Source: an uncultured delta proteobacterium (GTDB lineage Bacteria > Desulfobacterota > Binatia > UBA9968). Taken from it: a DNA stretch of 64,000 bases. The translations under genes were made by a program, and so were the position numbers. Shown piece after piece: positions 14,361 to 38,455 of the stretch (its first letter is position 1; each line of letters opens with the position of its first letter). The notes under the pieces were generated by a model. The model was not told the origin of the DNA. It did no database searches and worked only from the letters and a program-made list of their open reading frames with translations. The stretch covers positions 96,001 through 160,000 of the forward strand of contig CAVTUQ010000004.1 in the NCBI GenBank assembly GCA_963737905.1. The letters run 5' to 3'.

Positions 14361-14915
14361 ATGGGCAGCGAACAAAGAGGACCTGAAGTCGGAGAGCGTG
14401 CTCCGGAGTTTTTCGTCAAGGTGGGGAGCGACAGATTGGCATTGAGCCAACTCGCAGCCCGTCATGACAAGCTGGTTCTCACGAGCCAAGACAGCTATCG
14501 GTATCACCCCAACTGAGCCGCCAGTGTCGCTGCTTCGTTGAAGCAGGACTACGCGAAGATCGTTCGGGCCGGCGCTGAGTTGGTCATGATCTCGCCGGAT
14601 TCTCGGGAACAACACCACCAATACGCGTTTACACTTTTCGGCGAGGAGCTGCCTTACCTTTTCGTTTCAGATGGAGATTTCGAAATCGCGCGGTGCTACG
14701 GTCTGATCCGCCAAGAGGAACATCCCCACGGCGGCTTCTATGATCGCTCGCTCTGGATCTTGGATCCCGACGGCGTAATCACCCATAAGAGTCTTCCCTG
14801 GACAGGGAACGCCAGCATCAAAGAGTATCAAAAGTTGTTCAGCCTGATCGGCAGCGATCCGGGAGAATGGCGGGCCACCTGCGGCGTTCGGTTTGAAAGG
14901 GGCCACACTGAGTGA
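14361..14915 (+). CDS. Predicted selenoprotein, AhpC/TSA-like, Sec52 (TGA 14514-14516), 184 aa
   Basis: ORFs 14325-14516 and 14538-14915 are in frame; GGAGG RBS; VGERAPEF...HPN-U...ELVMISPDS..PYLFVSD..RSLWILDPDG; hairpin follows the TGA. Confidence 0.75.
14530..14546 (+). promoter_or_regulatory. SECIS-like hairpin
   Basis: CTGCTTC-GTT-GAAGCAG, perfect 7-bp stem 13 nt after the TGA. Confidence 0.7.
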
Positions 14916-26223: not shown

Positions 26224-26814
26224 ATGTTACTCAAAACAATTTTCGTTCTGTTGTGGTTCCTATCATTCAGCCATTTCCCAGCGTTCGCCCAATTAGGTCC
26301 TAAGGATGGGACCGATCTGAGTCCAACGGATCTCCAGCGAGTCAAAGTAGGACAGCCCGCGCCTGACTTCACGCTGCAAGATGTCGACGGCAAAAACATG
26401 TCGCTGTCGGATTTCCGCGGGAAGAAGTCAGTTGTCCTGGTCTTCTATCGCGGCTACTGGTGACCCTTCTGCATCGAACAGCTCGGGAAGCTGAAAAGTT
26501 TATTGACGAAACCGCAGAAAGAGAAGATCCAGATTCTTGCCGTCAGTGTCGACAGCCATGAAGACTCTAAAAAATTCGCCCAGATGCTCCAGAAGCGCTT
26601 CGAAGGTGAGTTCGACTTTCCACTTCTGGAAGACAAAGACCACAAAGTGATCAACCGCTACGGGATATTCAACCCGGATGGTTCTGGCTGGCCCCATCCG
26701 ACTACTTTGGTGATTGATCCGCAGGGCGTGGTGCGTTGGAAATTCGTAGAAGTGGATTACAAGAAGAGACCTTCCAACGAACAGATACGACAGCAGTTAG
26801 CCAAGATTAAATAG
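26224..26814 (+). CDS. Predicted exported selenoprotein, AhpC/TSA family, UxxC, Sec80 (TGA 26461-26463), 196 aa
   Basis: In-frame read [21 protein letters not shown] joins ORFs 26224-26463 and 26503-26814; signal peptide. Confidence 0.9.
26479..26493 (+). promoter_or_regulatory. SECIS-like hairpin
   Basis: CAGCT-CGGGA-AGCTG 15 nt after the TGA. Confidence 0.55.
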
Positions 26815-28907: not shown

Positions 28908-29507
28908 CTACAGCAGTTTTTTTCCAACCATCAGTGCGTCGACGTAGTCTTTCCGCAAGCTCGCGTAGTCCTCCGTCAATTGGACACCCAGCGCATCCGC
29001 CATTCGCGTGATAAAGTTTCTGTAACTGGTGACCGCGGCGATATCGAGAATCTCGGACTCACTCCAACCTGCCTCCTTTAGGGTCCGCACATCGGGCGCG
29101 TCCACTTCGCTCGGGCGAAGGGTAATTTTCTCAGCGTACTCGAGCATGGCCTTATCCTTGTCATCCAGCTTCGACTGGCGAAAATCGCGCGCGACCGCCA
29201 TCACGAGATCGTAATCTCCATTGACTTCTTTACGGAGAAACTCTCCGTGGGCAACGGTTCAATAACTGCACTTGAGCAGCGCACCGACGAGAACGGAGAT
29301 CATTTCTTCACGTTTGACTCCCAGGCTGGAACCGCCAAATTGAATCGCCCTGGAAAATACGTGCTGGGCTTCGAGAAGGTCAGGCCGGAGGCTAAAAATC
29401 TTCGCGATGTTTGAGACTTTGCCGGAGTGGTGATTCATTCTTTTCTGATAAATCTCTTTGATCTTGCCTGTCGCCTCCGACTCCTTGATGGTTTTAATAA
29501 AAGGCAC
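28908..29507 (-). CDS. Predicted selenoprotein, AhpD/CMD-like, CxxU, Sec83 (TGA 29261-29259), 199 aa
   Basis: EMISVLVGALLKCSY-U-TVAHGEFLR continues in frame into ORF 28908-29204. Confidence 0.92.
29232..29248 (-). promoter_or_regulatory. SECIS-like hairpin
   Basis: ACGGAGA-GTT-TCTCCGT starting 10 nt after the TGA. Confidence 0.8.
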
Positions 29508-29533
29508 CTTTCAAGTTCTCCTTTCAGGGATCG

Positions 29534-29625
29534 TTATCGACATAGGCCGCTTTGCTCGAGCTCGCGGATCAACGTGTCATCGATAAATTGCCCCGGTTTT
29601 ACATCCTTGGCGAAGCTGTCGGCAA
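29534..29625 (-). pseudogene. 3' remnant of a NitT/TauT-type substrate-binding protein gene
   Basis: Reads AKDVKPGQFIDDTLIRELEQSG, matching the SBP C-termini elsewhere in the window. Confidence 0.65.
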
Positions 29626-29638
29626 GACATGTGCGGCA

Positions 29639-30193
29639 TCACCCACGAAGAAAATCGTGACCGGAGATTCCCATCGCGTCGGCCATGCGATCGTTGAAAT
29701 TGTAAAGGCAGATTACGTAGACGATATCTAAAATATCTCGATCGGCGAAGCCGTGAGAGCGCAGTCTGTTGATATCGTCTTCGCTCGCCGTCGACGGCGC
29801 GATCGTCAGCTTGACCGCGTAATCCAACATCGCACGCTCCGCGGCCGGCAAATCTAACCGCGTGTAATCCTGCTTGATGCCTTCGACCAAAGGATCGTCG
29901 TTCGATTCGGTACGGAGAGCCTCCCCGTGCGCGGTCATTCAATAACTGCAATGGTTGGTCGCCGATACGACGGTCGCGATCATCTCGCGCTGGCGCCGCG
30001 TGATGCGCGATTCGCCGCGCATGATCCCGACGTCGATCTCGCGCCAAGCGGCCAGAACGTCGGGATTCAGGCTTTGTACTTGCCGGATCATCGAAACTTT
30101 TCCTCGCGCCGCCGACGGGCCGGCGCCAGACTCGTAAATTTCTTTCAGCTTGCCGGTGGCCTCAGACGGAGGGATCGTGCGGATGTAAGGCAT
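29639..30193 (-). CDS. Predicted selenoprotein, AhpD/CMD-like, CxxU, Sec85 (TGA 29941-29939), 184 aa
   Basis: REMIATVVSATNHCSY-U-MTAHGEALR; ORFs 29939-30193 and 29639-29938 are contiguous in frame. Confidence 0.93.
29912..29928 (-). promoter_or_regulatory. SECIS-like hairpin
   Basis: ACGGGGA-GGC-TCTCCGT (one G-U pair) 10 nt after the TGA. Confidence 0.75.
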
Positions 30194-30196
30194 GAT

Positions 30197-30409
30197 TCAC
30201 TCCTCTGCTCCAGATTGAGATCCGCGAGCATTGTTCACGGACAACACATGGCGCACCGCTTCAATAATTTCATAGCGACAGTCGCTTTTTTCCGGAACAC
30301 GGCGCAGCTGGACAACAATATTTTCCGCCTCTGCGCGCGAGTAGAACAATCCCACCGTGCTGACCTCGCCGTTGAGACGAATTTCGTTGACGTAGAGCTT
30401 TTCCATCAT
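30197..30409 (-). CDS. Small hypothetical protein within the operon
   Basis: 70 aa, GAGG RBS, fills the gap with 3-4 nt spacers. Confidence 0.7.
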   Translation of the reverse strand: MMEKLYVNEIRLNGEVSTVGLFYSRAEAENIVVQLRRVPEKSDCRYEIIEAVRHVLSVNNARGSQSGAEE

Positions 30410-30413
30410 TGCC

Positions 30414-31286
30414 TCACCAAGACTTCGGCGTCTTGTAGCCGACTTGTTTTCGTTCCTTCATGAAAGCTCTGTAAGTCCCCGGATGAGATTTCACGTTGTA
30501 GGGACAAACGTCGACGCACAGATGACAGTATTCGTCCCGCAGTCGCGAATAGGGATAGCACTTTTCCAGATCGATGAGCCAGCGTTTGATGCCGTGCGTG
30601 ATGACATGATCTTGCGGGATCGCGTCGCCCGGGCAATTCAACTGGCAGACGTTGCAGTTCATACAAACGTCCTGCACGCCGAATTCGCGCGGGTGATCCT
30701 CGACCAGGGGCAGATCCGTCGTGACAAAGCCCGGACGGAAGCTGGAGCCGTACTTTTCGTTGATCAAGCTGCCGTGGCGGCCGAGCTCGCCGAAACCCAC
30801 CTGATAAAATATCGGAATGGCCTGCACCTCGCTGGCGCCATTGTGGTGTGCGCGCGCCGGATAGCCAAGCGCGCGAACGTAAGCCGCGAGATCGCTCGCG
30901 ATCTCGGTGCACTTGGCATAGGTCCGCATCGCTTCTTCCTCTACGGCGTTGGCGCCATGGACAACTTTTTCGTAGTCTTCCGCCACGCAGGCGACGATAA
31001 CAAATTCGTGCGGCACATCCTCGCCAAGGTCGATCATGTGCGGCTGCAAGCGGCAGATCCCGACCATGTTCGCGCCGAGTTCCATCGATTTGGCTTTGAT
31101 CTGTTCCGTCATCCCCGCCAAATCACTAACTTCGACGCGTTGTGAATTGACCGGGCCATCGCGGAACGGCGCGAGCTTCACCCAGCTATCGCGGTAGGCC
31201 TGAATCTTCGGCGTCGCCGCGGTGTAATGACGCGCCGTCTCCATTCCCGCCGCATGGACCATTGAAGCCAATACCGGATCAGCCAT
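30414..31286 (-). CDS. Reductive-dehalogenase/QueG-like protein with two [4Fe-4S] motifs
   Basis: GFGELGRHGSLINEKYG..FR...VTTDLPL, CMNCNVCQLNCP, C..CHLCVDVCP; no Tat signal. Confidence 0.85.
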   Translation of the reverse strand: MADPVLASMVHAAGMETARHYTAATPKIQAYRDSWVKLAPFRDGPVNSQRVEVSDLAGMTEQIKAKSMELGANMVGICRLQPHMIDLGEDVPHEFVIVACVAEDYEKVVHGANAVEEEAMRTYAKCTEIASDLAAYVRALGYPARAHHNGASEVQAIPIFYQVGFGELGRHGSLINEKYGSSFRPGFVTTDLPLVEDHPREFGVQDVCMNCNVCQLNCPGDAIPQDHVITHGIKRWLIDLEKCYPYSRLRDEYCHLCVDVCPYNVKSHPGTYRAFMKERKQVGYKTPKSW

Positions 31287-31385
31287 GCCTTGTTCTCGCC
31301 TCGGTGTTATTCCACGCATACTAACGAACCCTTCCTGCGATCATCTTCACGCTGCAATCCCTGCTTCCTTCTCATTCAACCGGAG

Positions 31386-32493
31386 CTAATCCTCGGTCCA
31401 CGCATCGTCGTAAAATTCATGCGGGTTGAAGTCGAGCACCAATCCCCTGCCCTGCTTCGAAAGCTTGTCATAGATCAGCCCGCCGATGGCCGCGGCGCCG
31501 ATGCCCCAAAACGCGCAGTTTTTGAAGTAAGTGATTTGCGCTAGCATCGGTCCGTCCGGTTTTTTCACCCCGGATAACCTCTCCGGCGTCGACAATCTTG
31601 CGCGCGATGTTCGGACGATCGAGCGAGGCTTCCCAAAACACGGCGGTCTTGTCGAGTTCTTCCTGTCCCCAAACATTGGTCATTAAAATGTCGGACCGCT
31701 CCAGGGTGCGTTCGTCGATCTCCCGGCGCATTTGGTTGATATAGCCTCTCTTTTTCAGTGCGATATTGCTCGATACGATCGAGGTGACATGCTGGCCCGG
31801 AACCAGCCAATCGCCATCAAAAACCGGAACATTCGAATTGGTTGCGCAGATAATCACATCGGCGCCATTAACAACCTCGGCCGGTGAATCGACGGCGACG
31901 ACTTCGATGCCCAGAATCGCGGTCATTTCGACTGCGAATTTTTCTCGATTCTCTCGTGTCGGGCTGAAGACACGCACCTTGTTGATCGATTTCCGGATAC
32001 AGGTGAGCGCCAGGAGGTGGAGTCTAGCCTGGTCCCCAGCGCCGAAAACCCCTGCGACCCGGGAGTTTTTGCGCGCGAGCAGATCGGTCCCGACCATCGA
32101 GGCACAGGCCGTCGGCATCGCCACCACGCTGTTTGCGTCGGGCAGCTCTTTGGGATGCATTTCGCCGACTAGAATGAGCTTCAACGCCGCTGTGTCGCTG
32201 TCGTAAAGCACCAGAACCGGGCGCCCGCGGCGGGGATATTTTTGTTTGTCGCCGAAAATGCGCACAAGCTCCGCGTGCGTCATGATGCCCGTCGTGCCGT
32301 ATGCCGGCGCGGCGCCCTGGTGTAGCGTAATTCGCACGTTCTTCGGCGTGTGCGTGCGCCGCCGAAGCTCCGCCACCAGCGGGTCCTTCGCCCAATTGCG
32401 GAAGGCGTCCAGCATTGCATCCACTGCCTCCGACATCGCGAGAATGCCGCGGTGGTCGTCCGGTTTTGCTAAAATCGCCACTGGTGCCGCCAT
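31386..32493 (-). CDS. Ornithine cyclodeaminase/mu-crystallin family protein, frameshift near 31545
   Basis: GVFGAGDQARLH, VFSPTRENRE, ADVIICATNS, PGQHVTSI; the C-terminus GRT...ITYFKN shifts frame. Confidence 0.85.
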
Positions 32494-32511
32494 CGATTCT
32501 CCCTGATTTCC

Positions 32512-32793
32512 TTATTCGGGCACTTCGACGGTCACGTCGCCGACAATCCGCGCGACGCAAGCCAGCCTTTCGTCCGGCCCCGCGTTCATCATTTCGAGGG
32601 TCAATTCCTCGTTCTCGTTCTTTTCACTCAGGTGTTCTTTGCCGGAAAGGATCTTTACCCGGTCAGTGCCGCAAATCGCTTCGGTGCAGTCGTGGCGAAG
32701 CTGCAAGCCGTTTTGAATCGCCGAAACCAGGACCGTCGTGCCCACCGCCACTTCAAATGACTGTCCGGCCGGCATAAAAGTCACCGTCGGCAT
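32512..32793 (-). CDS. [2Fe-2S] ferredoxin, adrenodoxin-type
   Basis: HDCTEAICGTDRV...RLAC. Confidence 0.85.
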   Translation of the reverse strand: MPTVTFMPAGQSFEVAVGTTVLVSAIQNGLQLRHDCTEAICGTDRVKILSGKEHLSEKNENEELTLEMMNAGPDERLACVARIVGDVTVEVPE

Positions 32794-32796
32794 AGT

Positions 32797-33687
32797 TCAG
32801 GCCGCCATGCTTTTGATGCGCTCGATCGCTTCATTGATCATCCACTCGGGGGTCTCGTTGGCGCCGATGATACCCACCTTCTCTTTTCCCCGCAGCCACT
32901 CTAACCTGAGGTCGTCGACCTTTTCGATTTTGTGCACATGCGCGTTGAAAGCGCGGGCGACTTCGACCATTCGGGTCGTCATCCCTTCGGTCCAGCCGAA
33001 AATAATCATGGCATCGACTTGTTTAGCAAGCTTCTCAACCTCCGGAAGGCGCTGTAGCGAATCGATGCAGGCCGTGTTTCTAATCTGAACGTTGGCAAAA
33101 CGCTCGAGAATCCGAGCAATGATCTTTTTGTAAGTTTCCAGCCAGAAGGTCGTTTGCACGATCACGCCGATGGGCTCGAACCGAGTGAGACGAATCGATT
33201 CGACTTCTTCTTCGCGCTCGACGATAAAGACTTCTTTTCCCTTTTCTCGCGCAATGCCCTGAAGCCTTGGGATGCCGTGGTGCGTGCGGCTGCTGAGGAC
33301 GACGAGATGACACCCGTGCTCCAGCAGCTCGATCTCCGCCTCTTCCTGCTGCGTGACGAAAGGACAAGTCGCGTCGGCCATCAGCGTGAGGCCTTTTTCG
33401 CGCGCCTTTTCTCTCACCTCGGGCGGCGCCCCGCGCACACCGTAAATCAGTTTTTCACCGGCGTCTATTGATTCCATATCGCTGGTTGAGCGAATCCCCT
33501 GTTCCCCCAGCCCTTCCTTTTTGAAAGCAATGAAATCGAGATCGGGTCTCAGCGACCAAACCGCCAGATGATCGCCATGCTTTGCGACCATTTTCTGGTG
33601 GATGGCGCCGGCGCGATGAACGCCGACGCATAGCCCGCTCGGAGGGATTCCTTTCACGTTACTCAAGTCGCCTTTCAATATTTGCAT
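32797..33687 (-). CDS. IspH/LytB-like [4Fe-4S] protein (divergent)
   Basis: GLCVGV, DATCPFV, QTTF, NTACIDS, GANETPEW; GGAGGA RBS before ATG33687. Confidence 0.8.
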   Translation of the reverse strand: MQILKGDLSNVKGIPPSGLCVGVHRAGAIHQKMVAKHGDHLAVWSLRPDLDFIAFKKEGLGEQGIRSTSDMESIDAGEKLIYGVRGAPPEVREKAREKGLTLMADATCPFVTQQEEAEIELLEHGCHLVVLSSRTHHGIPRLQGIAREKGKEVFIVEREEEVESIRLTRFEPIGVIVQTTFWLETYKKIIARILERFANVQIRNTACIDSLQRLPEVEKLAKQVDAMIIFGWTEGMTTRMVEVARAFNAHVHKIEKVDDLRLEWLRGKEKVGIIGANETPEWMINEAIERIKSMAA

Positions 33688-33767
33688 GAGTTTTCCTCCT
33701 CGTACAGTCATCGCCGCACTGTCATTCCAAGAGGTCCCTGCGCGGTTTGCCGCGCCGATTATCGGTG

Positions 33768-34247
33768 TTAGACCGCCCGTGGCAAATCGATCGGCCCTCT
33801 ACTCTGGCGCGGCTCGACGTCAAAAGCTGCCGCCATTCGAACCGCGTAATTGTGATAGGCGATCGCCGTGGCGACCAGCAACACGTCCTTGTCGCTAAGG
33901 CCGGCCGCGCGCAGATCTTCGATATCCTTCTTGCGCACCGCGGCTTCATCGAGGGTACCCTTCTCCGCATAAGCCAGGACCGCCTTCTCCGCCGCCGTGA
34001 GCGTGAGCGCGCGCCAATCGCGCGCCGCTTGAGCCGCGAATGATGGGTCCAGCCGCCCGCCTACGGCGTCGACGAAGCGCTCGCAACGCAGACAACCGGC
34101 AACCACGAGACCGATCAAACTGTACAGGCGCGGCGTCAATTGATCGACAAGCAGGCCGTGCATCGCCGTGTCCGCGTCCAGCGCGGCGGGCGCCGCGCTG
34201 AGCAGATCGTCCATCCTTTTTCCTGGGACCATACGCAAACGGCTCAT
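33768..34247 (-). CDS. Degenerate AhpD/CMD-like protein without Sec
   Basis: DWR..LT.AEKA.L.YAEK.T..DIEDLRAAGLSD; active-site region reads GCLRCERF; ATGA overlap with the upstream gene. Confidence 0.8.
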   Translation of the reverse strand: MSRLRMVPGKRMDDLLSAAPAALDADTAMHGLLVDQLTPRLYSLIGLVVAGCLRCERFVDAVGGRLDPSFAAQAARDWRALTLTAAEKAVLAYAEKGTLDEAAVRKKDIEDLRAAGLSDKDVLLVATAIAYHNYAVRMAAAFDVEPRQSRGPIDLPRAV

Positions 34248-34891
34248 GATTTGTCCTCGTACAGCGTCGTCTGCAGCTGCTCACGCGTCACGCCGAAGGC
34301 TTCTAAAATTTCCTCAGGAAAGTCGAACTTTTCTTCCTCTACGCCGAGCAGGTCGGCGATGCGATCTACCCAGGTTCGGTATCCTGCTCCCAGACCGATG
34401 GCGAGGATCTGATCTTCATCAAACCCGGCTTGGCGCAATTTGTCGATGTCTCCGTCGGTAATTTGATCCGGCGTCAGGGTAAATTTTTCGGTGAACTCCA
34501 GCATGGTTTTCTCCTGCTCGTCCAAGTCGGCTTCGCGCCAGTTGGAGATCACCTTGGCAACTTCCTCAACCGCCATTTTGCCGTCGACACGGAGAAACTC
34601 CCCGTGACCGATGCCTCAAAACCGGCAGCCGCTCAGCGCCGCAACCTGGGTGGCGATCAGCTCTTCCTTGCGCCGGCCCAAGCCTGAATGACCGGGCCGA
34701 TAGATGCCCCTGTCGAAACCGACTCGGGCTTCGAGCAGCGCCGGACACAGGCTAAAAATTCGCACGATGGGCGGCAGCTTGTCGCCGCGTCTCTGGCGCA
34801 CCGACGGGCTCAGCCGCGCGAGAGTACGCTGATAGACTTCCTTGAGTTCGCCGCTCGCCTCCGACTCGTGAATGACATCGATGAAACTCAT
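34244..34891 (-). CDS. Predicted selenoprotein, AhpD/CMD-like, CxxU, Sec92 (TGA 34618-34616), 215 aa
   Basis: ELIATQVAALSGCRF-U-GIGHGEFLR in frame with ORF 34244-34576. Confidence 0.92.
34588..34606 (-). promoter_or_regulatory. SECIS-like hairpin
   Basis: CACGGGGA-GTT-TCTCCGTG, same register as in the paralogs. Confidence 0.8.
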
Positions 34892-35574
34892 GAACCTTTC
34901 CCTTCACGCACCTGCCAGGGATCCGCCGGCATCGCCACACCGCGCTCCTTCGCTAACTTCTCCGCGCGCTCTGCGCCGGCTCGAGCGCTCTTTAGCTGCC
35001 ACTCGGCGACTTCCAGTCCGAGTCCATCGACCACCCGCACGCGGAAGTTGAAATAGGCGCACACGTGAACGATATCGAGAATGTCTCGGTCGGTCCAGCC
35101 TGCGTCTCGAAGTTTCTGTATATCTTCTTCCTTCATAGCACTCGGAGTTAAAGTTAACTTCTCGGCATATTCCAGCATCGTGTATTCGGCTGGCGTCAAT
35201 TGCATTTCGCGCCAATCCGATTTCGCCTGCTCCACCGCCAGATCGTCGCCACCCTCTTGACGCAGAAACTCTGCGTGGGCGACGGTTCAGAATCGACAGT
35301 TGAGCGCCCCTGAGGTCACCGTCGCGATCATTTCCCGCTGCGCCGTCGTGAGCCGGGATTCCCCTCGCATGATTTCCCACATCAGCTCCGCGGTATGCCA
35401 CATCGCTTTGGGATTGAGGCTGTGCAACATCGGCGGGCTAACCGGCGGTCCACCGGCTGACGCCTCGCGCTCCCGGTTGATTTTTTCACCCCGGCGCTGC
35501 TCGCGGATCTTTGCGTAAACCTCTTTTAGCTCTCCCTGGGCTTCAGCCTCGGGTGTGACCTTGATCCATGGCAT
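34888..35574 (-). CDS. Predicted selenoprotein, AhpD/CMD-like, CxxU, Sec96 (TGA 35289-35287), 228 aa
   Basis: REMIATVTSGALNCRF-U-TVAHAEFLR in frame with ORF 34888-35235. Confidence 0.93.
35244..35284 (-). promoter_or_regulatory. SECIS-like hairpin with lower stem
   Basis: CGTCGCC...ACGCAGA-GTT-TCTGCGT...GGCGACG. Confidence 0.8.
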
Positions 35575-35851: not shown

Positions 35852-36595
35852 ATGCTCCTGGCCAAAAAACCCGGCTCGCCTTTTCCTCTCTACTATAAGG
35901 TGATGATGGAAATCCGGGATAACATCTTATCCGGAAAGTGGGGCTCCGGCTTTCAAATTCCGGGGGAGATTGATCTCTCCCGGCAACTGGGTGTCAGCGT
36001 CATCACCGTGCGACAGGCCCTGGGACAGTTGGCGCAAGAAGGCTATCTAAGACGCGAAAAAGCAAGGGGCACCTTCGTAAACTGGAAGGGTCCTTTGAGA
36101 CAGTCCGTGAGTTTAGAAGTGCCGGCGGATGATCTCGCCACCATCAATCCTGACAGCACAAGCTTCAAACTCCTATCATTCGATCTCATTGAGTCTCCGG
36201 TAGACATTGAACAAAGTCTCCGGATACCGCGTAAAGAAAAAATAACACGCATTATTCGGATCCGATTATCCCAAGGGCAACCCCTCGCGTACGTGATTTC
36301 CTATGTCCCCTCGCGAATCGGTTCCAAGATTCAAGAAAAGGAGCTCGCGCGATCGCCCCTCAATACCATCGTTGAAGACCTCCTGCCGTTCAAAATCACT
36401 CGAGTGAAACATACGGTTGCGGCGAGGCTGGCCGATGATGAGGTGTCGGCTCACCTTGGGATCCCTCCGGGGTCACCGGTGCTTTACGTCGAAAGAGATT
36501 ATCTTCATAAAAAGGAAATGATTTTGCGATCCGTGGGCTTCTATCGGACTGACCTTTTCACTTACGAGCTCACGCTCAAACGCCGATCTCGCTAA
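35852..36595 (+). CDS. GntR family regulator, HutC/UTRA subfamily
   Basis: PLYY..IPGE.DLSRQLGVSVITVRQAL..L..EG..RGTFV plus UTRA-like C-terminus. Confidence 0.92.
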   Translation: MLLAKKPGSPFPLYYKVMMEIRDNILSGKWGSGFQIPGEIDLSRQLGVSVITVRQALGQLAQEGYLRREKARGTFVNWKGPLRQSVSLEVPADDLATINPDSTSFKLLSFDLIESPVDIEQSLRIPRKEKITRIIRIRLSQGQPLAYVISYVPSRIGSKIQEKELARSPLNTIVEDLLPFKITRVKHTVAARLADDEVSAHLGIPPGSPVLYVERDYLHKKEMILRSVGFYRTDLFTYELTLKRRSR

Positions 36596-36630
36596 CTGGT
36601 TATATCAGGTTCGTACCACTGGGGGTTTGT

Positions 36631-37395
36631 ATGATGAACATTGATGCTCTGAATGACCTCGCAGCCAACCGGAGAAGCATCCGCGGCTACGATAAGACAA
36701 AAAACGTTCCCGATGAAATGGTGCGAAAGATTCTCGATTGCGCCCGCTGGGCGCCTTCGGGAGGCAACGGCCAGCCTTGGGAATTTATCGTTGTCCGCGA
36801 TGAGAAAACTCGTCATGAGATCGCAGATATCTTCTTGAAGCAGCAAGAGCATAAAAAGGAAATGGAGATGGCTGTGCGCGGCGACGCGAAGATGACCGGT
36901 GATGGCTTCCGACATGCGCCGGTGCATCTCGTCGTGTTAGGTGACCCCAGGGTGAAAGAGACCTATCCGGTGAGAACGATGCTGGATAAGGCGGACTCCC
37001 ACTTCTACACAGGCCTGGCCAGCGCCACCTTGTTGATTCATCTGGCTGCGACTTCTCTCGGCTTGGCATCTCAGTATGTCAGCGACGCAAGCTCACCCTA
37101 CATGGAAACCATGCTCAAAGTTCTTCTTGGGGTACCCGAGCCTTTGAGGGTTTACCACCTGATTCCACTGGGCTATGCGAGCAAACCGATTCCCGCCCGG
37201 CCTCGGCGCGAGGTTGATGAGATGACCCACTATGAGCGCTATGACATGGCGAAATACAGAAACGACCGCGAGTTTCAAAAGTTCGTCATGACTGCCAGCC
37301 GGAGAGGTTACTACGGAAAAAAAACCTGGGTGGAGGACGATACGAATCAAACAACCGACCCTAAGGGAGGAAACAATGAGCAAGAAACAAGGTAA
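36631..37395 (+). CDS. Nitroreductase family flavoprotein
   Basis: RRSIRGY, ARWAPSGGNGQPWEFIVV, LAATSLGL. Confidence 0.9.
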   Translation: MMNIDALNDLAANRRSIRGYDKTKNVPDEMVRKILDCARWAPSGGNGQPWEFIVVRDEKTRHEIADIFLKQQEHKKEMEMAVRGDAKMTGDGFRHAPVHLVVLGDPRVKETYPVRTMLDKADSHFYTGLASATLLIHLAATSLGLASQYVSDASSPYMETMLKVLLGVPEPLRVYHLIPLGYASKPIPARPRREVDEMTHYERYDMAKYRNDREFQKFVMTASRRGYYGKKTWVEDDTNQTTDPKGGNNEQETR

Positions 37396-37927
37396 AGTCG
37401 ATCTGGCGAAATTTCGCGAGGTCCATCAAGAGCAGCGGGAGCAGGCGAAGAAAGGTCCGGAAGGCCATACTCTCGTTGCCCGCGCCGTAGTCCGGCTCGT
37501 CGAGGACCAGCTCAAAGAGGCGAGAGTTGGGGAGTACACCATCCAGTGCGATGAGGCCAAGTCGCGCAAGGGCGGCGGTAAAGCGCCATCACCGCTGCAA
37601 TACTTTGTCGCCGCGGCGGGATTTTGAATGTTCAGTCAACTGGCGCGGTACGCGTCTCAATTGGGCATTGAGATCGAGGATGCGGAGATGGATATTCGAA
37701 TGACCTACGACACGCGCGGCAAGTTACTGTTAGCCGATGTCTCTCCGGCCTGTCGTGAGCTGACCTATGTTTTTAAGATTGAGAGCCCGGCGTCACCGGA
37801 AAAGGTGCAGGAGTTATTGCAGATGATCGAGAAGGGATGCCATACCATCAACTCGCTGAGAAATCCGGTGCCCGTGTCAGGGAAACTTGTCCATAACGGG
37901 CAAGAATTCGCCGTTCCTTCAACTTAG
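37376..37927 (+). CDS. Predicted selenoprotein, OsmC/Ohr family, Sec84 (TGA 37625-37627), 183 aa
   Basis: DE..GG...PSPLQYFVAAAGF-U-MFSQ; second Cys in GCHTINSL; ORFs contiguous in frame. Confidence 0.9.
37628..37668 (+). promoter_or_regulatory. SECIS-like hairpin
   Basis: Upper GGCGCG-GTA-CGCGTC; lower ATGTTCAGT/ATTGGGCAT with G-U pairs. Confidence 0.7.
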
Positions 37928-37969: not shown

Positions 37970-38455
37970 ATGGCAAAGCAACTGAATATGGGCGACTTAT
38001 TTCCCGAGTACGTCGTGCAAACCGTGGATAATCGCACGCTTCATCTGCCACGAGACTTGTCCGGGGAATACTCGGTGCTAATTTTTTACCGCGGCGGTTG
38101 GTGACCTTACTGCAATCGGCAGTTGGCCGACTTCCAATCACACATCGACGAGTTCAAGAAAGAGAACGTCGACATCGTGGCCCTATCTGTGGATCCAATG
38201 GATAAGGCCAAGGAGACCGTGGAGAAGCTGCAGCTTACTTTTCCCGTGGCCTATGGACTCGAAGTGCCCAGGGATGCGGACAAAGTAGGCGCGTTTTGGG
38301 AGGAGCGGAGAAAAATCATCCACGCCACGAACTTTATTCTGGACTCAGACAAAAAGGTAGTCGACGCTTCTTATAGCATCGGCCCCATCGGCCGCATCGT
38401 CGCCGCCGACGCCCTGAGCCACGTCCAGTTCTTTAAAAAAAGAAAGGCACAGTAG
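37970..38455 (+). CDS. Predicted selenoprotein, AhpC/TSA family, UxxC, Sec45 (TGA 38102-38104), 161 aa
   Basis: AAGGAGGT RBS; MAKQLNMGDLFPE...LIFYRGGW-U-PYC-NRQLADF; 5' part is missing from the ORF track. Confidence 0.92.
38116..38130 (+). promoter_or_regulatory. SECIS-like hairpin
   Basis: TCGGC-AGTTG-GCCGA 11 nt after the TGA. Confidence 0.6.

Follow-up and report, generated by a model that had tools for sequence, protein, structure and literature searches.

AhpD-like proteins carrying selenocysteine (Sec, U) in a CxxU motif (COG2128) were described as a new selenoprotein family from the Sargasso Sea by Zhang, Fomenko and Gladyshev (2005), who reported 27 sequences; the legend of Figure 3 of that paper names an AhpD-like selenocysteine insertion sequence (SECIS; PMC1088965). 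In later sources the family is represented by 299 'AhpD-like 1' and 70 'AhpD-like 2' sequences of the Global Ocean Sampling (GOS) survey (PMC2398784), by the entry 'AhpD-like protein, TIGR01926, CxxU' in a 2026 review (PMC13188914) and by its use as a browsing example in BSepDB (PMC13326102), while the NCBIfam name of TIGR01926 is just 'peroxidase-related enzyme'. The present analysis concerns four genes of this family (P1 to P4) in a 64,000-nucleotide stretch of DNA (the window) from an uncultured delta proteobacterium of the Binatia (assembly GCA_963737905.1, contig CAVTUQ010000004.1, positions 96,001 to 160,000), each of which contains an in-frame TGA codon followed after 10 nucleotides (nt) by a 17-nt hairpin. 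Comparison with homologous sequences indicates that P1 to P4 very probably encode AhpD-like CxxU selenoproteins whose hairpins serve as bacterial SECIS elements; mechanism and gene family are both established, and the locus is a well-preserved instance of them.

Several described elements are suited for comparison. The bSECISearch consensus, as restated in the 2026 review (PMC13188914), allows loops of 3-9 nt in which one or both of the first two bases are G, with G or U next in most cases, stems of 4-16 base pairs (bp), a distance of 16-37 nt from UGA to loop, and a minimum free energy (MFE) of -7.5 or lower. The SECIS of Escherichia coli fdhF, as described in PMC8659212, has an upper stem-loop of 17 nt at a distance of 11 nt from the UGA; U17 is bulged, and G23 and U24 are conserved in the loop. 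For Sec-containing selD genes, a conserved stem-loop beside the UGA within the coding region, the selD bacterial SECIS (bSECIS), was reported by Mariotti et al. (2015) using RNAz (PMC4561486).

Four AhpD-like genes, their hairpins and genes of the Sec machinery

The predicted features of the locus are as follows, in positions of the window; aa, amino acids.

28908..29507, minus strand, P1, putative AhpD-like (TIGR01926) selenoprotein gene, 199 aa, GTG start, motif CSYU-TVAH
29232..29248, minus strand, P1 candidate SECIS hairpin ACGGAGA-GUU-UCUCCGU, -8.4 kcal/mol
29259..29261, minus strand, P1 predicted Sec codon, in-frame TGA, aligned with the second Cys of CxxC in Cys-type homologues
29639..30193, minus strand, P2, putative AhpD-like selenoprotein gene, 184 aa, motif CSYU-MTAH, TGA stop
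29912..29928, minus strand, P2 candidate SECIS hairpin ACGGGGA-GGC-UCUCCGU, -7.5 kcal/mol
29939..29941, minus strand, P2 predicted Sec codon, in-frame TGA
33768..34247, minus strand, fifth paralog, Cys-type, 159 aa, with CLRC and without the His four residues on, a TGA or a hairpin
34244..34891, minus strand, P3, putative AhpD-like selenoprotein gene, 215 aa, motif CRFU-GIGH
34589..34605, minus strand, P3 candidate SECIS hairpin ACGGGGA-GUU-UCUCCGU, -7.5 kcal/mol
34616..34618, minus strand, P3 predicted Sec codon, in-frame TGA
34888..35574, minus strand, P4, putative AhpD-like selenoprotein gene, 228 aa, motif CRFU-TVAH
35260..35276, minus strand, P4 candidate SECIS hairpin ACGCAGA-GUU-UCUGCGU, -8.2 kcal/mol, stem pair 4 being C-G, not G-C
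35287..35289, minus strand, P4 predicted Sec codon, in-frame TGA

The pattern TGA-N10-ACGNNGA-NNN-TCNNCGT occurs four times in the window, always on the minus strand (29232-29261, 29912-29941, 34589-34618 and 35260-35289) and each time in a different TIGR01926 gene, one for each of P1 to P4; it has no match in any of 100 dinucleotide-preserving shuffles of the window. The four spaced hairpins, which a preliminary description of this DNA had reported with exactly these letters, are thus real. In all four, an uninterrupted 7-bp stem closed by a 3-nt loop starts 10 nt past the UGA, the distance from UGA to loop being 17 nt, and the stem of P3 can be extended to 8 bp as CACGGGGA/UCUCCGUG (-10.1 kcal/mol). 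The same description had pointed to a G/C swap at stem position 4 matched by a CTC or CTG codon, which is seen in the window and extends well past the four paralogs, and to an A/G difference at position 5 that gives an A-U or a G.U pair, which the window hairpins also display. Their loops (GUU, GGC, GUU and GUU) begin with G without exception, as had been noted, the first two letters being GU in P1, P3 and P4 and GG in P2.

The proposal that these hairpins fit the bacterial SECIS model is borne out, as the loop, stem, G position, spacing and energy given in the restated bSECISearch consensus are matched in four of the four genes, with spacing and loop size at the short end of the permitted range and with two of the four hairpins (P2 and P3) exactly on the energy limit of -7.5. 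They resemble the fdhF element, as far as it is described in PMC8659212, in their size of 17 nt, nearly in their spacing (10 versus 11 nt) and, in three of four, in a loop starting with GU, but differ from it in having perfect stems without a bulged U in the 5' arm, a triloop, and GG at the start of the P2 loop. The selD bSECIS (PMC4561486) is likewise a coding-region stem-loop conserved across a family beside the UGA, and the gene family is what sets it apart from the AhpD-type element. A scan of the whole window against Rfam at gathering thresholds gave no match, and Rfam seems to hold no model of the AhpD-type element. In a literature search on bacterial SECIS elements and synonymous constraint, which did not cover figures or supplements, no covariation analysis of this element was found; it is not claimed to be unpublished.

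In hmmscan, P1, P2, P3 and P4 score 108.4, 136.8, 86.9 and 127.0 bits, respectively, against TIGR01926, all above the cut-off of 81.8, and the Pfam CMD domain is present in each of them; P3 scores 79.2 bits, under that cut-off, in a six-frame search of the genome. Pairwise identity among the four is 36-46%. In each, the TGA stands at the second Cys of a CxxCxxxH motif, a His follows four residues past U (CSYU..AH in P1 and P2, CRFU..GH in P3, CRFU..AH in P4), and the reading frame is open on either side and complete when TGA is read as Sec. The Cys-type fifth paralog lies directly downstream of P3 and was recovered by the six-frame search at 51.5 bits without an internal stop. Since the stop of P4 overlaps the start of P3, and the TGA stop of P3 the start of the fifth paralog, both in the form of ATGA, these three genes look translationally coupled. 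In comparison with the known AhpD-like selenoprotein family, as it is described in the sources cited above, P1 to P4 show no difference in kind: they share the HMM (hidden Markov model) family, a CxxU motif with Sec at the second Cys, and a small G-bearing apical loop just downstream of the UGA. What this locus presents is four Sec paralogs and one Cys paralog inside 6.7 kb, each Sec paralog having an ortholog clade of its own in related genomes.

Three genes of the Sec machinery are present in the same genome, an assembly of 6.7 Mb in 46 contigs that is 87% complete. The selD, selB and selA genes lie side by side on one contig (C29:71024-75669), with scores of 381.4, 409.8 and 606.9 bits, respectively, all well above the cut-offs, and selD has an in-frame TGA of its own. 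A likely SECIS of selD, GUGCAA-GUU-UUGCAC, is located 27 nt past that UGA. TGA is at the same time the commonest stop codon of long open reading frames (ORFs; 273 of 672), which rules out a general reassignment of TGA, and P2, P3 and P4 themselves end at TGA codons that are not followed by the register hairpin.

The hairpin in homologous genes

A scan of one genome per species yielded 78 loci from the best 80 of 532 confirmed relatives. Within these best 80, the closest relatives (82-88% identity) are metagenome-assembled genomes (MAGs) labelled Candidatus Binatia, 'delta proteobacterium', Thermodesulfobacteriota or Syntrophobacteraceae, and the others come from Gemmatimonadota, Chloroflexota, Acidobacteriota, Actinomycetota, Halanaerobiales, a Bacillus and further groups. 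A TIGR01926 search in 60 relatives of the window's genome gave 61 matches, 59 of them with one in-frame TGA; leaving aside the window's genome and two unpublished ones (G006 and G012), 50 of 52 matches have exactly one, and these 52 were taken into the comparison. Cys forms were gathered from relatives of two genomes that hold Cys forms. The final set comprises 186 unique sites from many phyla, 130 with TGA and 56 with TGC or TGT, after removal of exact duplicates of the 120-nt stretch, of L145 (without the first Cys), of L152 (with neither TGA nor the motif), and of L153 and L154 (with a divergent CPFU motif and a different hairpin); five rows with a His-to-Asn replacement (L125, L126, L127, L129 and L132) were added by hand. 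In a FastTree phylogeny built from 109 columns, for which the U/C column and the ten residues after it were masked, each of P1 to P4 falls into its own well-supported clade together with orthologues from other genomes.

The evidence from within the Sec clade stands apart from the Sec/Cys contrast. Among 127 distinct Sec rows, 84.1% of the cells are paired in the register of the window hairpins, as compared to 32-55% after a shift of the 3' arm by 1-3 columns; the observed pairing, the count of double-changed cells and the covariation score are each unmatched in 500 shuffles. The number of pairs with any double change, which is three, is not above that of the shuffles, 479 of 500 of which reach it. 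The compensatory changes are found at pair 2 (C-G to U-A, in 7 rows and with at least 4 changes on the tree), pair 4 (G-C to C-G, in 20 rows, at least 4 changes) and pair 7 (in 15 rows, at least 9 changes), and RNAalifold independently recovers the core of this helix in the register of the window hairpins. The change at pair 2 also alters the protein, His CAC becoming CAU together with a replacement of Arg CGU by His CAU or Gln CAA, and was seen in a Bacillus, in Halanaerobiales, in Anaerolineaceae and in an Acidobacteriota MAG. In two relatives Arg CGU is replaced by Cys UGU and the pair is kept as G.U, and in the five hand-added relatives, which are kin of the window's genome, the catalytic His CAC has become Asn AAC with the whole hairpin unchanged. 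The Asn-variant Sec forms read CFYUTESNGEFLR.

Equal conservation of the hairpin in Cys orthologues had been named in the preliminary description as a result that would speak against a SECIS, and the Cys forms do not keep it. Of 130 Sec rows, 96 have six or seven of the seven register pairs, as opposed to a single one of 56 Cys rows; over 54 Cys rows, 48.9% of the cells are paired, no better than in shifted registers (23-54%). When any model-like hairpin is counted, defined as a perfect stem of 4 bp or more whose loop measures 3-9 nt, has G among its first two bases and lies 16-37 nt past the UGA, an energy of -5 kcal/mol or lower is reached by 124 of 130 Sec versus 14 of 56 Cys rows, and one of -7 kcal/mol or lower by 102 versus 8. 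The same AhpD-type hairpin occurs with loops GGG, GCG, GGC and CGGGA in Gemmatimonadota, Chloroflexota, Acidobacteriota, Halanaerobiales and Bacillus.

Codon choice in the stem follows the same division. The Arg at position +9 is encoded by CGT in 99 of 113 Sec rows but in only 3 of 43 Cys rows, the share of CGT among the Arg codons of the genome being 14%, and for Gly at +5 the codons GGA and GGG account for 80 of 88 Sec rows versus 8 of 26 Cys rows. The chance of obtaining all seven pairs from the peptide of each gene and the codon usage of the genome is 0.003-0.016; the four values were left unmultiplied, as the paralogs are not independent. In the ortholog groups of P1, P2, P3 and P4 (7, 16, 7 and 11 rows, respectively), variable wobble positions amount to 3/3, 3/3, 2/3 and 3/3 in the 10-nt spacer and to 4/4 in every group downstream, but to 2/6, 2/6, 1/6 and 1/6 in the hairpin. 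The variants that do occur in the hairpin either turn the A-U of pair 5 into G.U or change CGT to CGC, which opens the terminal pair alone. Thus the P1 hairpin is identical in 6 of the 7 rows of its group, ACGGAGA-GGC-UCUCCGU is found in 14 of the 16 rows of the P2 group, and the P4 hairpin is identical in 9 of 11 rows, the other two having an A to G change that gives a G.U pair. It had been suggested that the peptide H-[GA]-E-[FA]-L-R is partly constrained by RNA structure; with synonymous sites near-frozen in the hairpin and replacements that follow the pairing, such a constraint appears well supported by the sequence comparison.

The products of P1 to P4 are predicted to be thiol/selenol oxidoreductases of the AhpD-like, CMD-fold type (TIGR01926), in which the second Cys of CxxCxxxH would be replaced by selenocysteine encoded by UGA. 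The hairpin 10 nt past the UGA would be bound by the C-terminal part of SelB, which would carry Sec-tRNA(Sec) as the ribosome arrives, and this delivery would lead to the incorporation of selenocysteine in place of termination by release factor 2. The stem consists of the codons for the catalytic His and the five residues after it, so that the same 18 nucleotides would be subject to RNA pairing and to protein function alike. Wobble positions in it are fixed, for example as Arg CGU, Gly GGR, Glu GAG and Phe UUU, Leu is CUC or CUG depending on whether Gly or Ala stands opposite, and tolerated amino acid changes preserve the base pairs.

A broader reading, to which we assign about an even chance, is that the Sec clade of TIGR01926 possesses one ancient, minimal, bulge-free 17-nt SECIS that has been locked 10 nt past the UGA and kept over at least eight phylum-level groups, where it steers the residues beside the active site, and that sister subfamilies have swapped it for other hairpins. 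The lock at 10 nt would follow from the construction of the hairpin out of the catalytic His codon and the five codons after it, and the steering from the observation that Arg gives way to His, Gln or Cys solely through pair-keeping changes and His to Asn with two stem bases kept. If this reading is true, the compact element could serve as a portable SECIS and, in the form of a covariance model, for finding genes that are usually truncated by gene callers. As ordinary gene callers would cut genes such as P1 to P4 in two, recognition of the UGA together with its SECIS gives the correct proteins. The locus is an unusually clean natural case of 18 nucleotides that appear to serve both an RNA signal and an active-site peptide, backed by many independent compensatory changes, and is of use in teaching and as a model for annotation and perhaps, as a compact SECIS, in engineering; knowledge of how bacteria insert selenocysteine is unchanged by these findings.

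Other hairpins were observed in Sec forms of related subfamilies. In a sister subfamily (L204-L209, L212-L214, L060, L038, L069 and L072) with the motif H-A/G-x-D-L-R-A/V-E-V/I, a hairpin CGA(C/U)CUC-CGUGCC-GAG(G/A)UCG is located about 17 nt past the UGA. There, the wobble base of the Asp codon (C/U) covaries with the first base (G/A) of the next-but-two codon, so that the choice between Val and Ile tracks a synonymous choice at Asp. In L179-L182 and L148, Sec forms with HGAVASY, the hairpin again starts 10 nt past the UGA, but its loop is four nt long (ACGGCGC-GGUC-GCGUCGU). GGUC also forms the loop in E. coli fdhF.

Counter-evidence and alternative explanations

Several results weigh against the assignment of the hairpins as SECIS elements of selenoprotein genes. 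For folding energy, each 17-mer gives a 7-bp hairpin of -7.5 to -8.4 kcal/mol, but the 66-nt folds around the four sites have weak and unremarkable z-scores (-0.26 to -2.17), and free energy alone therefore does not pick out these regions; the MFE of 50-nt segments likewise does not separate Sec from Cys rows (p = 0.34). What sets the sites apart is their exact position, their codons and the comparison with homologues, not free energy. For the phylogeny, the Sec/Cys state changes three times on the tree, and only one of these changes is forced by well-supported branches, so that the Sec-versus-Cys contrast reflects few independent events and is overstated by row counts. A test of independent pairs was left with between one and three usable Sec/Cys contrasts, a number that does not permit a sign test, and for this reason reliance is placed on covariation and on synonymous sites within the Sec clade. 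The register hairpin is missing in 34 of 130 Sec rows, which belong to subfamilies with other hairpins and of which 30 reach -5 kcal/mol. Conversely, one Cys form, L046 from a Cloacimonadota MAG, has six of the seven register pairs (AUUCAG-AAGCA-CUGAAU, -3.5 kcal/mol), a pairing that could be due to chance or be the relic of a former SECIS; this sequence sits in a small Cys clade inside the Sec part of the tree. The Cys forms furthermore share residues of the motif (H in 56, L in 44 and R in 43 of 56), from which it follows that a part of it is constrained by the protein alone.

The tRNA for Sec also belongs among these counter-arguments. None was present among the 44 tRNAs that ARAGORN identified in the 87%-complete assembly, and relaxed settings added just one poor 75-nt candidate. 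The best match to the Rfam model RF01852 scores 46.6 bits, below the cut-off of 47, at a locus that ARAGORN calls tRNA-Leu, and an Rfam scan beside the sel operon gave no tRNA-Sec.

Of the alternative explanations, the one that fares best concerns only the loop and is compatible with the SECIS assignment. It holds that the lineage has a SECIS consensus of its own, a triloop starting with GU, recognized by a SelB with a lineage-specific preference. The hint came from two other Sec genes of the window with loops GTT and GTA, and both hairpins are present: CTGCTTC-GTT-GAAGCAG at 14530-14546, 13 nt past the TGA at 14514-14516 of a peroxiredoxin (Prx)-like gene, and GGCGCG-GTA-CGCGTC at 37642-37656, 14 nt past the TGA at 37625-37627 of an OsmC-like gene. 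Five families searched in the genome contain at least 20 in-frame TGA sites, and the loop of the most stable simple hairpin was recorded at 20 of them (10 in AhpC-TSA genes, 3 in OsmC, 2 in molybdopterin oxidoreductases, one in selD and the 4 AhpD-like sites). GUU is the commonest loop (7 of 20 sites), AGUU and AGUUG account for four more (two each), and 12 of the 20 best hairpins have 3-nt loops. The other nine sites are varied, with GGC twice, GUA, GUG, GGUACG, GGUCU, CGGGA and CAGGUCGC once each and one site without a convincing hairpin, and the loop calls are rough, since the hairpin picker favours the most stable perfect stem. The AhpD-type hairpin itself carries the diverse loops listed above in other phyla. 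Moreover, small loops opening with G and then G or U are what the model restated in PMC13188914 describes for bacteria in general, and G23 and U24 are conserved in the E. coli element according to PMC8659212, so that no lineage-specific consensus is needed; the suggestion of one is not supported, and it is regarded as unlikely. The clade may favour GUU triloops.

A second alternative sees in the hairpin a by-product of codon usage and of the conserved peptide H-G-E-F-L-R next to the active site, with no function at the RNA level. The overlap of the stem with the catalytic His codon, the sharing of H, L and R by the Cys forms and the six pairs of L046 are what such an origin would lead one to expect. 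Random synonymous codons at genome usage, however, would seldom produce the full stem, CGT is the usual Arg codon in Sec rows and a rare one in Cys rows, and wobble positions are frozen in the hairpin but variable on either side of it. In addition, some of the compensatory changes alter the protein and keep the pair, the His-to-Asn variants retain the hairpin, and the Cys forms pair no better than shifted registers, which together make a by-product very improbable.

Least credible of all is the view that the TGAs do not encode Sec, the genes being split or broken or the TGA being read as another residue, and that the hairpin serves pausing, mRNA stability or a Sec-less read-through: although tRNA-Sec was not found in the incomplete assembly and P1 to P4 are known from sequence, the TGA of 130 unique sites from many phyla coincides exactly with the redox Cys position and has open frames on both sides, nearly all family matches in relatives have exactly one in-frame TGA, selA, selB and a TGA-containing selD are present, TGA is the commonest stop of long ORFs with no general reassignment, and the CxxU family is a catalogued one (PMC1088965; PMC13188914).

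Candidate selenoprotein genes and genomic surroundings

The SECIS assignment of P1 to P4 is set in a genome that looks rich in selenoproteins, judging from in-frame TGA codons. The window alone contains at least eight candidate selenoprotein genes, and in the genome in-frame TGA was found in 11 of 21 matches to AhpC-TSA, 3 of 5 to OsmC and 2 of 12 to molybdopterin oxidoreductase. Examples of such sites, given as contig and position, are C15:1559, C7:92021, C39:105389, C19:200805, C29:35634 and C36:54791. Within the window, two AhpC/TSA (peroxiredoxin-like) genes on the plus strand have a WUPxC motif, one at 26347-26739 with its TGA at 26461-26463 and the other at 37991-38362 with its TGA at 38102-38104. 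Neither had been listed in the preliminary description; with P1 to P4, the Prx-like gene and the OsmC-like gene they make up the eight candidates.

For the distribution of the AhpD-like genes among close relatives, a TIGR01926 match at E <= 1e-15 was observed in 21 of 36 genomes of the same taxonomic family, and the two genus-mates G001 and G002 (93% and 89% complete) have no match at this threshold; the cluster may thus be patchy in close relatives, or it may be missed by these assemblies. The genes between and beside the AhpD-like genes, at 30414-33711 on the minus strand and 35852-37395 on the plus strand, encode a 4Fe-4S dicluster protein, a homologue of ornithine cyclodeaminase/mu-crystallin, a 2Fe-2S ferredoxin, a LytB-family protein, a GntR/UTRA regulator and a nitroreductase, a composition that suggests a redox island.

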